This document shows, in pieces, positions 5,820 through 37,369 of a stretch of DNA of 64,000 nt (its first letter is position 1; the number at the start of each line of letters is the position of its first letter). A program made the translations under genes and the position numbers. The notes under the pieces are model-generated. The model saw only the letters and a program-made list of their open reading frames with translations, made no database searches and was not told the DNA's origin. The stretch is from Eledone cirrhosa (lineage: Eukaryota): the NCBI GenBank assembly GCA_964016885.1, contig OZ024766.1:22072001-22136000 (forward strand), written 5' to 3'.

Positions 5820-6035
5820 TTAAATGATTGTGCAACAAAGAAGACCAGGCTGAGAATCTCTGATCTTGCTCTCCTTCTCGATAAGGGGAGACGACTCTAT
5901 CAGAGCTTTCTTAGCAGGCTGCTCAGACACGGCTATCACCTCACCACATCCGTTGACGTTGTCATCAGGTGTTGTTTTCTTGTCCAACGCGCTTTCGTCG
6001 ACCTTGGCTTCCACTTGGCTGCTGTTCTCGTTAGC
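5820..6035 (-). CDS. Putative terminal coding exon ([11 protein letters not shown]...[10 protein letters not shown]) with C-terminal CaaX-type motif
   Basis: Non-repetitive coding-like island; acceptor CCCCACAACAG|GCT in phase 0; 216 bp including TAA; phase matches exon 16403-16711. The acceptor has a weak polypyrimidine tract. Confidence 0.7.
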
Positions 6036-6939
6036 CTGTTGTGGGGTGGTGGTGGTGGTGGTGGTGGTGGTGGTGGTGGTGGTGGTGGGGTTGTAGTGGT
6101 GGTGGTGGTGGTGGTGGAGGGGTTGTAGTGGTGTGGTGGTGGTGGTGGTGGTGGCGGAGGGGTGGTGTGGTGGTGGTGGTGGTGGTGGGGTTGTAGTGGT
6201 GGTGGTGGTGGTGGTGGTGGTGGAGGGGTTGTAGTGGTGGTGGTGGTGGAGGGGTTGTAGTGGTGGTGGTGGTGGTGAGTTGAGGGGGGAAGTAGAAAAA
6301 AAGAAGGTAAAATATAAGTAACAAGAACAATAATATATATTTTTATATGTGTATATATATATATATATATACACGCATATATATATATATATATACACGC
6401 ATATATATATATATATACACGTATATATATACAGGTATGTAAACATATATATATATGTATGTGTGTATTTATATATGCATATATATATACACATATATAT
6501 ATATAAAGTATATATATATATACACACATATATATATATATATATATACACATGTATATAAAAATGCTACGGTTAGGTATTGTCTAGAAACATGCACCAA
6601 TACTGCACCATTCAGCAACGCTACACTGCATGCCAACAGATACATTTAATAGAAGACAACAACAACAAACGCTGCAACATGCAACCTCACTACAAAGTAA
6701 ATTAGCTTTAATCTAAGCTGCAACAACACAGGTATAAGTATTAAATGTTTTTAGTACAAAACAACACTATGACTACATCACATTAAATATTAAAGTCTTT
6801 ACTGTAATACTGTAAATATTCACAACAGTCTGTCCACCAGTAAAGATACTATAAACATTTAGTAGAAAACAACACTATGACTACATCACATTAAATATTA
6901 AAGTCTTTACTGTAATACTGTAAATATTCACAACAATCT

Positions 6940-7745
6940 GTCCACCAGTAAAGATACTATAAACATTTAGTCCACCAGTAAAGATACTATAAACATTTAG
7001 TACACCAGTAAAGATACTATAAACATTTAGTACACCAGTAAAGATACTATAAACATTTAGTACACCAGTAAAGATACTATAAACATTTAGTACACCAGTA
7101 AAGATACTATAAACATTTAGTCCACCAGTAAAGATACTAGAAACATTTAGTCCACCAGTAAAGATACTATAAACATTTAGTCCACCAGTAAAGATACTAT
7201 AAACATTTAGTCCACCAGTAAAGATACTATAAACATCTAGTCCACCAGTAAAGATACTATAAACATTTAGTCCACCAGTAAAGATACTATAAACATTTAG
7301 TCCACTAGTAAAGATACTATAAACATTTAGTCCACCAGTAAAGATACTATAAACATTTAGTCCACCAGTAAAGATACTATAAACATTTAGTCCACCAGTA
7401 AAGATACTATAAACATTTAGTCCACCAGTAAAGATACTATAAACATTTAGTACACCAGTAAAGATACTATAAACATTTAGTCCACCAGTAAAGATACTAT
7501 AAACATTTAGTCCACCAGTAAAGATACTATAAACATTTAGTCCACCAGTAAAGATAATATAAACATTTAGTACACCAGTAAAGATACTATAAACATTTAG
7601 TCCACCAGTGAAGATACTATAAACATTTAGTCCACCAGTAAAGATACTATAAACATTTAGTCCACTAGTAAAGATACTATAAACATTTAGTCCACCAGTA
7701 AAGATACTATAAACATTTAGTCCACCAGTAAAGATACTATAAATA
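6940..7745. repeat. 30-bp minisatellite (TCCACCAGTAAAGATACTATAAACATTTAG), about 27 copies, preceded by a ~110-bp duplication
   Basis: Head-to-tail units with no spacers. Confidence 0.95.
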
Positions 7746-33800: not shown

Positions 33801-36800
33801 TAAACAATATCACTTCTATTGGTAGAAACATTATCAGCTCTGGTATAGACAATATCACTTCTATTGGTAGAAACATTATCAGCTTTGGTAGAAACAATAT
33901 CACTTCTATTGGTAGAAACATTATCAGCTTTGGTAGAAACAATATCACTTCTATTGGTAGAAACATTATCAGCTCTGGTATAAACAATATCACTTCTATT
34001 GGTAGAAACATTATCAGCTTTGGTATAAACAATATCACTTCTATTGGTAGAAACATTATCAGCTTTGGTATAAACAATATCACTTCTATTGGTAGAAACA
34101 TTATCAGCTTTGGTAGAAACAATATCACTTCTATTGGTAGAAACAGTATCAGCTTTGGTAGAAACAATATCACTTCTATTGGTAGAAACATTATCAGCTC
34201 TGGTATAAACAATATCACTTCTATTGGTAGAAACATTATCACTTCTATTGGTAGAAACAATATCAGCTTTGGTATAAACAATATCACTTCTATTGGTAGA
34301 AACATTATCACTTCTATTGGTAGAAACATTATCACATTTGGTATATGATATATAATTACTACTGCTGCTGCTGCTATTGTTGTTACTGCTGCTACTACTG
34401 CTGTTGTTGCTGCTGTTGTTACTACTACTGCTGTTGTTGTTGCTGTTACTACTACTACTGCTGTTATTGTTGTTGTTGTTGTTGTTGTTGTTGATGTTGC
34501 TACTGCTGCTGCTGCTGTTGTTGTTATTGCTGTTGCTGTTGCTACTACTGTTGTTGTTGTTGTTGTTGTTTCTATTGCTACTGTTGTTGTTGTTGTTGCT
34601 GTTGTTGCTGTTGTTGCTGCTGCTGTTGCTACTACTACTGCTGCTGCTGCTGCTGCTGCTGTTTCTGTTGCTGCTGCTGCTGCTGCTGTTGTTGTTGTTG
34701 TTGATGTAGATGCTGCTGTTACTGATACAGCTGTTTTTGTTGTTACTGTTGTTGTTGTTGTTGTTACTGTTGTTGTTGTTGCTGCTGCTGCTGTTACTGC
34801 TGCTGCTGCTGCTGCTGCTGTTGTCAATATAGATGTCAATACTGCTGTTGTATTGGTTGATGTGTTTACTGACGTAGTTGTTAAAGTTCTGTCTGTCTCC
34901 GGCGGAGTGTGACGTTGTGTGAGTCTGTGCGGCGGGGGATTGAAGCTCCTCTCCGGCGGAGTGTGCCGCAGTGTGTGCCACCAGGGGTTGTAACTCCTCT
35001 CTGGCGGAGTGTGCCATCAGGTGACCCACGTTCTGTGCCACGGGAGACTGCAGTTCCTCTCCAGTGGAGTGTGACGTTGTGTGAGTCTGTGCCGCGGGGG
35101 ATTGAAGCTCCTCTCCGGCGGAGTGTGCCGCAGTGTGTGCCACCAGGGGTTGTAACTCCTCTCTGGCGGAGTGTGCCATCAGGTGACCCACGTTCTGTGC
35201 CACGGGAGACTGCAGTTCCTCTCCAGTGGAGTGTGACGTTGTGTGAGTCTGTGCCGCGGGGGATTGAAGCTCCTCTCCGGCGGAGTGTGCCGCAGTGTGT
35301 GTCACACTGGGTTGCAGCTCCTCTCCGGCGGGGTGTGCCGCAGTCTGTGTCACGGTGGGTTGCAGCTCCTCTCCGGCGGGGTGTGCCGCAGTTTGTGTCA
35401 CACTGGGTTGCAGCTCCTCTCCGGCGGGGTGTGCCGCAGTCTGTGTCACACTGGGTTGCAGCTCCTCTCCGGCGGGGTGTGCCGCAGTCTGTGTCACGGT
35501 GGGTTGCAGCTCCTCCTCCCCAGTGAAGGAGTATGTCACAGTGTATGTCACAGGGGATTGCAGCTCCTCCTCTCCAATGAAGGAGGGTGCCACAGCATCA
35601 TCCCCAGTGTGTGCCATGATGAATTGGAGTTCGTCTCCAGTGGAAAGTGGCGCCATCTGTTGTGCCACGGAGAGCTGCAGTTTGTTGTTGTCTCCAGCGA
35701 AGGGGTTTGTCTCCCGCAAACGCTGAGCTCCATCTTTAGTTAAAATGTCTGTTAGATGGCGATCACGTTTGTCTTTGGTGAAAGCGTGCGCCATGTCGCT
35801 CTGAAGCTTTCCTCCGGCAAATGGATTCGCTAGCTCGGGTTCACGTTTGTCTTTGGTGAAAGTGTGCGCCATGTCGCTCTGAAGCTTTCCTCCGGCAAAT
35901 GGATTCGCTAGCTCGGGTTCACGTTTGTCTTTGGTGAAAGTGTGCGCCATGTCGCTCTGAAGCTTTCCTCCGGCAAATGGATTTGCTAGCTCGGGTTCAC
36001 GTTTGTCTTTGGTGAAAGTGTGCGCCATGTCGCTCTGAAGCTTTCCTCCAGCAAATGGATTTACTGAATGGTGCTCATGTATATCTTTGCTGAAAGAATG
36101 CGTCGAGGAGCTCTGAAGTTCTCCTCCAGCAAATGGATTAGCCAGATGGCGCTGAGGTGGTTGGTTGTCAACGGTGACAGAATCTATAAACAGCAGCTGC
36201 TGCTGCTGTTCTAATTTGGTCTCCGCCGTCGCCACATCCACCGCCTCATCCCTTTGCCTCCCCCTCCCCCTCCGGCGTCCACCAGCTCCGCCGCCGCCGC
36301 CTCCACTTCGACCTTTGGCGTCTCTCCCTCCTCCTCCTCGCCGGCGTGTCCCTCCCACCGCTCCTCTCCTTGGCATTCTTCCTCCTCCTCCTCCTCCTCC
36401 TCCTCCATCAAACGAACTACTGACACCACCACCACCTTCTCTGCCTTCTCCTCTTTTTCTTCTTCCTTGTTCGACACCGCCGCCGCCGCCGCCGCCATCT
36501 TCGCCGCCAACAGTTCGCCTCCCCTTCCGCCTCTTCCCCGTTTCCCTTGCACCTTTCCTCGTAATTCCTCCTCCCCCTCCTCCTCCACACCCCCCTCCTC
36601 CATCGGCGGCGACACCTCCTACTACTACTTCACCGCCTCCTCCACCGCTTACTTCTACTCCACTCCCCCCTCCCCCTCCACCACCACCTCCTCCTCGCAT
36701 TCTTTCTTTCAAGTAAGATATAACTACTCCTACCTCGTGCGGCCTCATCTTGTCGTCGTCTTTGTCTCCGCCCAACTTGTATTTAGGCTCCGCCTTCTTC

Positions 36801-37369
36801 TCTCCTTTTTGTAATAACTCCTCCTCCACGTCTTTACCTTTTCGTAACTCCGCCTTCTTCTTCTTCTTCGTCTTCTCTGCTTTTAGTAACTCCTCCTCCT
36901 TCTCTCGTCTCCTTTGTAACTCCGCCTCTTTCTCTGGCCCCTTTCGTAGCTCCTCCTTCTCTCGTCTCCTTTGTAACTCCGCCTCTTTCTCGTGTCCCTT
37001 TCGTAGCTCCTCCTTCTCTTGTCTCCTTTGTAACTCCGCCTCTTTCTCTGGCTCCTTTCGTAGCTCCTCCTTCTCTTGTCTCCTTTGTAACTCCGCCTCT
37101 TTCTCTGGCCCCTTTCGTAGCTCCTCCTTCTCTTGTCTCCTTTGTAACTCCGCCCCTTTCTCTGGCCCCTTTCGTAGCTCCTCCTTCTCTCGTCTCCTTT
37201 GTAACTCCGCCTCTTTCTCTGGCCCCTTTCGTAGCTCCTCCTTCTCTTTTTTTTGTAGCCCCGCATTTTTCTCGGCTTTTAGTAACTCCTCCCTCTTCTC
37301 CATTTTTTGTGGCTCCTCCTTCTTTCTTTTTTGTAACTCCTCCCTCCTCCTCCTTGGCTTGCTTTTCAC
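24811..37369 (-). CDS. Giant exon, >4180 codons of tandem peptide repeats and low-complexity sequence; uncharacterised, likely intrinsically disordered; 5' boundary unresolved
   Basis: 12.5 kb without a stop; measured repeat units are multiples of 3 (57, 78, 42, 99, 84 bp); no long (TA)n tracts, unlike the flanks; donor GAG|GTATGT at 24811/24810 in phase 1. The listed start is a GTG, with an in-frame TGA at 37388-37390. Confidence 0.8.

Follow-up and report, generated by a model that had tools for sequence, protein, structure and literature searches.

Here we describe a putative minus-strand gene with a giant exon in Eledone cirrhosa, located in a stretch of 64,000 nucleotides (nt) of the assembly GCA_964016885.1 (contig OZ024766.1, positions 22,072,001 to 22,136,000 of the forward strand). 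This whole stretch is called the window below, positions are counted from its first letter, and all junction, exon and anchor readings rest on its genomic sequence, which is AT-rich with abundant (AT)n and satellite arrays, an octopus-like landscape. The giant exon (24811..37387) has 12,577 nt and 4,192 codons, is covered by tandem arrays over about 70% of its length, and ends at a phase-1 donor after 24811, past which the frame reads on to a stop at 24806; its first in-frame ATG lies at 37303. On the same strand follow exon 2 (18595..18794), which has 200 nt, runs from phase 1 to phase 0 and is acidic, exon 3 (16403..16711), which has 309 nt, is in phase 0 at both ends and has ATG as its first codon exactly behind the acceptor AG, and the last coding exon, exon 4 (5820..6035), which ends in CCTII-stop (codons 5837-5823) and is followed downstream by AATAAA/ATTAAA hexamers from 4888. 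An earlier sequence-only reading had joined these four exons by GT-AG junctions in phases 1, 0 and 0 into a single frame of more than 4,400 amino acids (aa) ending in GLLCCTII. The donors after 24811, 18595 and 16403 and the acceptors at 18794, 16711 and 6035 are all present on the minus strand with these phases, the join makes 13,302 nt or 4,433 codons with one terminal stop, and the count from the ATG at 37303 is 4,405 aa. The six splice sites lie in the 97th to 99th percentile of all GT or AG sites on the minus strand by simple generic position-weight scores, whose weights were not trained on the Eledone cirrhosa genome; the exon-2 donor, with a score of 2.7, is the weakest of the three donors. 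Exons 2 and 3 appear as GC islands, with GC contents of 0.54 and 0.55 against about 0.25 in their upstream flanks.

Our analysis indicates that the 12.6-kb frame is probably a genuine giant exon that codes for the disordered part of a CaaX-anchored protein. From 37387 to 24806 the frame has no stop in 4,194 codons while 182 and 522 stops interrupt the other two sense frames, and in 200 local shuffles the expected number is 258 ± 15 with a minimum of 220. Among non-overlapping tandem arrays whose period is at least 20 nt, the period is divisible by three in all 21 that lie inside the giant ORF (open reading frame), compared with 11 of 26 outside it (Fisher p = 1.4e-5). In addition, two older, diverged repeat families in the ORF show ratios of nonsynonymous to synonymous differences (pN/pS) of 0.53 and 0.55, with third codon positions varying most, values that are biased downward by the choice of repeat units by protein motif and the non-independence of the pairs. 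One of them is a family of about 30 aa at 27683..29284 (minus strand) with 18 anchors and a KxFGxTWDE-like core, often preceded by Cys-Pro, in which the ratio of 0.53 is obtained across 15 distinct units. A self-BLAST returned the self match only. On the whole, these sequence patterns fit selection that favours frame, length and composition over the exact sequence, and long internal exons in general are described in similar terms, as tending to be repeat-rich and disordered, with frame, length and composition selected more than exact sequence (PMC12457776).

The same evidence bears on the explanation that the giant frame is non-coding satellite DNA, left open by chance or by an assembly artefact. 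Such an explanation would account for the high share of tandem arrays, and the 5' part of the frame is purine-rich, with stops rare in several frames. We nevertheless regard it as extremely improbable, since each of the 200 shuffles contains at least 220 stops where the real frame has none, one frame is kept through 21 unrelated arrays, and the old repeats show a synonymous bias. Furthermore, three DNA runs from one study contain 73-80% of the sampled words of 24800-31300, although these runs are possibly from the source sample and are non-independent.

The giant part gives a negative FoldIndex-type score in every one of its 21 blocks of 200 aa, which bears out the claim of a giant, repeat-built protein that is predicted to be disordered, and its net charge is mostly negative past residue 400. 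No transmembrane stretch is found, the best 19-residue hydropathy being 1.04, and a secreted or transmembrane protein is ruled out by the missing hydrophobic stretch. Pfam gives no family at E<=0.1 in exons 2-4 and none above its cut-off in the giant ORF, and a PDB search of the giant protein gives four matches, all of them on poly-Gly sequence around aa 1780-1900. For aa 2700-3000, a single-sequence AlphaFold model has a mean pLDDT (predicted local distance difference test) of 34 and is uninformative. The proposed lack of any globular domain thus stands for the part inside the window, but not for the whole protein, whose N-terminus may lie outside it. Six NPF (Asn-Pro-Phe) motifs are located at 35699..36139 on the minus strand (aa 417-563), five of them within one 26-aa tandem array, and judging from their sequence they may bind EH domains.

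At the other end, the CaaX pattern closes only 3 of the 1,010 stop-terminated six-frame segments of at least 30 aa in the window, and CCaaX closes one, which is this protein. The geranylgeranyltransferase I (GGTase-I) consensus is given as Cys-a-a-X with a branched aliphatic a2 and X from L, F, I, M or V (PMC10942308), and the terminus CTII-stop has both this type of a2 and an X from this set. According to a study of human GGTase-I in yeast, CTII is a substrate with near-complete geranylgeranylation (PMC11152559), which agrees with the earlier proposal of a terminal prenylation box. The C-terminus is therefore predicted to be a geranylgeranyl plus palmitoyl anchor, where palmitoylation of the Cys adjacent to the CaaX box is suggested by analogy, because paralemmins carry it (PMC3405040).

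We then present the exons that may lie upstream of the giant exon. A scan of the window outside the giant ORF yields 47 exon-like pairs of acceptor and donor for the minus strand, compared with 27 for the plus strand. Of the 47, the three that score highest are 62683-62627 (score 18.1), 58276-58199 (12.4) and 59120-58929 (12.3), all above 9.1, the best score among the 27 plus-strand control pairs. In the order of the minus strand, candidate exon U1 (62627..62683) has 57 nt and is open in the phase-1 frame only; U2 (58929..59120) has 192 nt, is basic and is likewise open in the phase-1 frame only; and U3 (58199..58276) has 78 nt, is K/N-rich and is open in all three frames. Their lengths are all divisible by three and both ends of each are in phase 1, the same as the giant donor and the exon-2 acceptor, and the chain from U1, U2 and U3 straight to exons 2, 3 and 4, without the giant exon, is open across 350 codons. 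The codon model, which was trained on the giant ORF itself, prefers the proposed frame in all six small exons (U1-U3 and exons 2-4), with a marginal preference and a negative score for U1. No Pfam family exceeds the cut-off in U1-U3; U2 has sub-threshold Pfam matches only and no match in PDB. Judging from these candidates the gene is probably longer, and the earlier count of four exons probably incomplete. On the phases seen, the giant exon can serve either as an optional insert in phase 1 or as an alternative first exon.

If U1 is real, the coding sequence continues upstream, since U1 starts in phase 1; it is only 1.3 kb away from the end of the window, beyond which there may be more coding exons that possibly encode folded domains. 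This position of U1 also favours the explanation that the window holds the 3' end of a known gene with several domains, such as an ankyrin-like gene or an adaptor gene, whose folded domains are outside the window. The giant exon would then be a lineage-specific insert, which changes the novelty of the finding while overlapping with the reading of the exon as an insert. There is precedent in the ankyrins, in which giant inserts are reported to have evolved independently in fly and vertebrates (PMC7401806). We consider this explanation tentative and somewhat unlikely, as no domain is detected by Pfam in U1-U3 or exons 2-4 or by PDB in U2, and neither a bMERB, a death nor a 2H domain stands ahead of the CaaX box.

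Several observations weigh against the reading of the giant frame as an exon of a longer, anchored gene, and they are collected here. The giant exon lacks a good acceptor; the best nearby is at 38035, with a score of 1.4 in the 94th percentile, and its frame is compatible with phase 1 yet reaches the giant frame only through two single-base shifts. Of these one-base steps, located near 37765 and 37370, one is inside an (ACC)n run and the other inside GAG repeats, and they look like slips of long reads. They belong to a possible 5' extension of the giant exon at 37369..38126 on the minus strand, composed of two abutting open frames (38126-37581 and 37806-37369) at successive one-base offsets and including an ATG at 37758 in the context ACCATGG; this part could be coding sequence with assembly slips in trinucleotide runs, or a non-coding microsatellite. 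Position 37369, formerly taken as the 5' end, marks no start or splice site; the codon there is a GTG in frame, 18 nt into the ORF, and coincides with the stop of the upstream frame. In 37300-36850 the codon model slightly favours a different frame, and at 36618-36214 a second minus-strand frame inside the giant ORF is open for 135 codons. The second frame is E/A-rich and resembles the E/K-rich repeats upstream, whereas the main frame there is G/R-rich, and a compensating pair of frameshifts, natural or assembly-made, is possible. Due to the preference of the codon model and this second open frame, the first 400 or so residues of the giant ORF are uncertain. Adjacent copies of the young arrays have a pN/pS of 0.77 overall, and several arrays exceed 1, so that constraint on the exact sequence is weak. 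A single recent tandem expansion produced five of the six NPF motifs, and hence these are non-independent. Finally, the homologue searches gave no relative that supports any of the junctions.

The condition of the 5' end is also what speaks for a giant exon that comes first among the coding exons and has a promoter of its own, giving a four-exon isoform of about 4,400-4,550 aa. Translation would start at the ATG at 37303 or, should one base be missing near 37370, at 37758, and U1-U3 would be alternative 5' exons or part of another transcript. There is no convincing acceptor before the giant frame, and the ATG at 37303, flanked by A at -3 and G at +4, makes frame repair unnecessary. It remains an unlikely explanation in our view, given that coding-like frames extend about 700 nt upstream of 37387 and that the match in phase 1 of U1-U3 with the giant donor and exon 2 would then be partly a coincidence.

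At the 3' side, exons 3 and 4 alone could encode a protein of 174 aa, and it is conceivable that the locus has two products, namely this small CaaX protein and a giant ORF without lipid anchor, ending at 24806 or after exon 2. The exact start of exon 3 with ATG behind its AG, the weakness of the exon-2 donor and the giant ORF's own stop 5 nt beyond its donor are all in line with two products. However, a GC-rich, coding-like exon 2 of 200 nt that goes from phase 1 to phase 0 exactly bridges the giant donor and exon 3, and the scan for exon candidates in the window found no other phase-0 partner for exon 2. Two separate products are quite improbable.

To look for relatives, we searched several collections, and the homologue libraries among them carried no positive control for the presence of proteins of this animal group; because of this, the lineage specificity proposed for the giant protein is given as possible only. 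Exon 3 matches none of 692 candidates among proteins of 182-2,000 aa and none of five among those of 56-181 aa, and residues 2600-4192 of the giant ORF match none of 7,996 scored proteins of at most 2,304 aa. Proteins longer than 2,304 aa were reached only by a search in which the final 1,200 aa were compared with 1.84 billion representatives and which gave 17 matches at E<=1e-3 with 18-39% identity. Ten of the 17 were inspected and are unrelated tandem-repeat proteins whose alignment is driven by periodicity, and the matches are not taken as relatives. In the Atlas, exon 3 and U2 have no usable match. A metagenome scan with exon 4 hit two loci, both chance matches in bacterial-type DNA. Our literature searches turned up no paper about this gene, which may nevertheless be named in supplementary gene tables of cephalopod studies.

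It is of interest to compare the predicted protein with known systems. Like the paralemmins (PALM1-3 and palmdelphin), it is an acidic protein with a terminal cysteine cluster in a CaaX context, here CCTII. Paralemmins are described as anchored through prenylation and palmitoylation of this cluster, palmdelphin as switching between CaaX and non-CaaX ends by splicing, and the family as not found in Ciona, sea urchin, fly or worm (all in PMC3405040), and the size given for paralemmin is about 42 kD (PMC2148134). Unlike them, it has an insert of about 4,200 aa of repeats and no Pfam family, while theirs is a conserved paralemmin motif. The comparison with paralemmins made in the sequence-only reading is apt as an analogy for the anchor and does not extend further. 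Membership in the family is rejected for lack of Pfam family-level similarity in exons 2-4, the giant ORF and U1-U3, the paralemmin and MIF motifs not having been searched one by one.

The giant ankyrins (the neurospecific domains of gAnkB and gAnkG and the Drosophila giant Ank2) are alike in having a multi-kb exon with a disordered, repeat-bearing stretch, and their giant exons are described as encoding extended disordered repeat stretches (PMC7401806). The differences are that Pfam finds no ankyrin repeats, ZU5/UPA or death domain within the window, past whose end the gene may continue 5', that the membrane link here is a predicted lipid anchor, and that gAnkB has basic microtubule-binding repeats while the insert here is mostly acidic or neutral. 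EHBP1 and EHBP1L1 share several NPF motifs and a terminal CaaX box, as reported in PMC7442826, with six NPF motifs found here. In EHBP1, however, NT-C2, CH and bMERB domains occur, the last directly before the CaaX box, and none of them is found here by Pfam; EHBP1 or bMERB membership is rejected, with no bMERB or CH domain in exons 2-4 or the giant ORF. The CaaX end of CNP (2',3'-cyclic nucleotide phosphodiesterase) belongs to the set that PMC11152559 tested with CTII. CNP itself ends in CTII, the same CaaX tetrapeptide. The phosphodiesterase domain of CNP is not found by Pfam in the exons before the anchor, and the two proteins have only the tetrapeptide in common. CNP/RICH membership is rejected, there being no 2H phosphodiesterase domain by Pfam in exons 2-4, and the only exon candidates of 2H-domain size between exons 3 and 4 are repeat-derived.

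Giant disordered exons occur in ankyrins and other scaffolds, and acidic disordered proteins with a CaaX anchor occur among the paralemmins. Taken together, a CaaX anchor with a giant disordered exon is a new combination of known parts. We propose, at about an even chance of being correct, that the giant exon is an optional insert of a longer gene and makes a lipid-anchored disordered spacer with many short binding motifs, comparable to a giant-ankyrin-like insert on a paralemmin-type anchor. The small 3' exons would supply a doubly lipidated anchor at the inner face of the membrane, and splicing would go from U1-U2-U3 either straight to exon 2, with at least 350 aa open in the window, or by way of the giant exon. 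Inclusion of the giant exon would add a disordered spacer of about 4,200 aa with many weak binding motifs, and the giant form may hold the cortex, vesicles or, through its six NPF motifs, endocytic EH-domain adaptors away from the membrane. Selection would act mainly on length, frame and composition and weakly on the exact sequence. If true, the combination of a CaaX anchor and a giant disordered exon without detectable relative would mean that a very long membrane tether has been invented independently. It would also offer a tractable example of how giant proteins grow by tandem repeats when selection favours frame and composition over sequence, and such repeat-rich giant exons are easily masked or split by gene predictors. 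For now the biological weight is moderate.

The introns around exons 2 and 3 contain inverted repeats. An array of a 186-bp satellite lies in the intron between exons 3 and 4 (12661..15543), and an inverted copy of it in the intron that separates the giant exon from exon 2 (20377..21233). As two arms, 14709-15543 and 21213-20377 are 98.4% identical in inverted orientation over 837 bp and bracket exons 2 and 3, and so does an inverted pair of interspersed repeats (10302-10670 and 19990-19618, 98%). Inverted repeats are common in repeat-rich introns. As far as the sequence tells, the arms could pair in the pre-mRNA and loop out exons 2 and 3. When the phase-1 giant donor is joined directly to exon 4, one codon is followed by a stop, as exon 4 read at offset 2 opens with a stop; skipping of exons 2 and 3, if true, would yield an anchor-less giant form with the stop in the last exon. 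A further step is to see the orphan gene as a tether switchable in size and anchor, with forms of about 350 and more than 4,400 aa, repeat-driven skipping and possible circularisation of exons 2 and 3, and release from the anchor without decay, which we rate as very improbable.

The 186-bp inverted pair is also a possible long double-stranded RNA stem and a site where the assembly could invert a segment of 4.8 kb. Copies of the interspersed repeat, about 400 bp long, are present at 10257-10674, 19618-19990 and 21906-22327 with 96-98% identity, the middle one inverted, and a weaker one near 55706-56056; they yield false exon candidates. On the plus strand of an intronic repeat, 17963-18020 gives a marginal match to an Rfam tRNA family (29.3 bits against a cut-off of 29), and it is likely the tRNA-derived head of a short interspersed nuclear element (SINE). 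Within the putative intron between U3 and the giant exon, a stop-free minus-strand frame of 1,045 codons at 51123-54257 has endonuclease and reverse transcriptase domains (Pfam RVT_1, E=4e-31) and is apparently an intact ORF of a long interspersed nuclear element (LINE). Two plus-strand open frames, 60909-61784 and 55142-55564, resemble retroelement fragments, for which Pfam gives a sub-threshold DUF6451 only in the former and nothing in the latter. Downstream of the gene, two plus-strand frames at 2588-2971 and 3533-3982 share their last 30 residues, which points to a local direct duplication.

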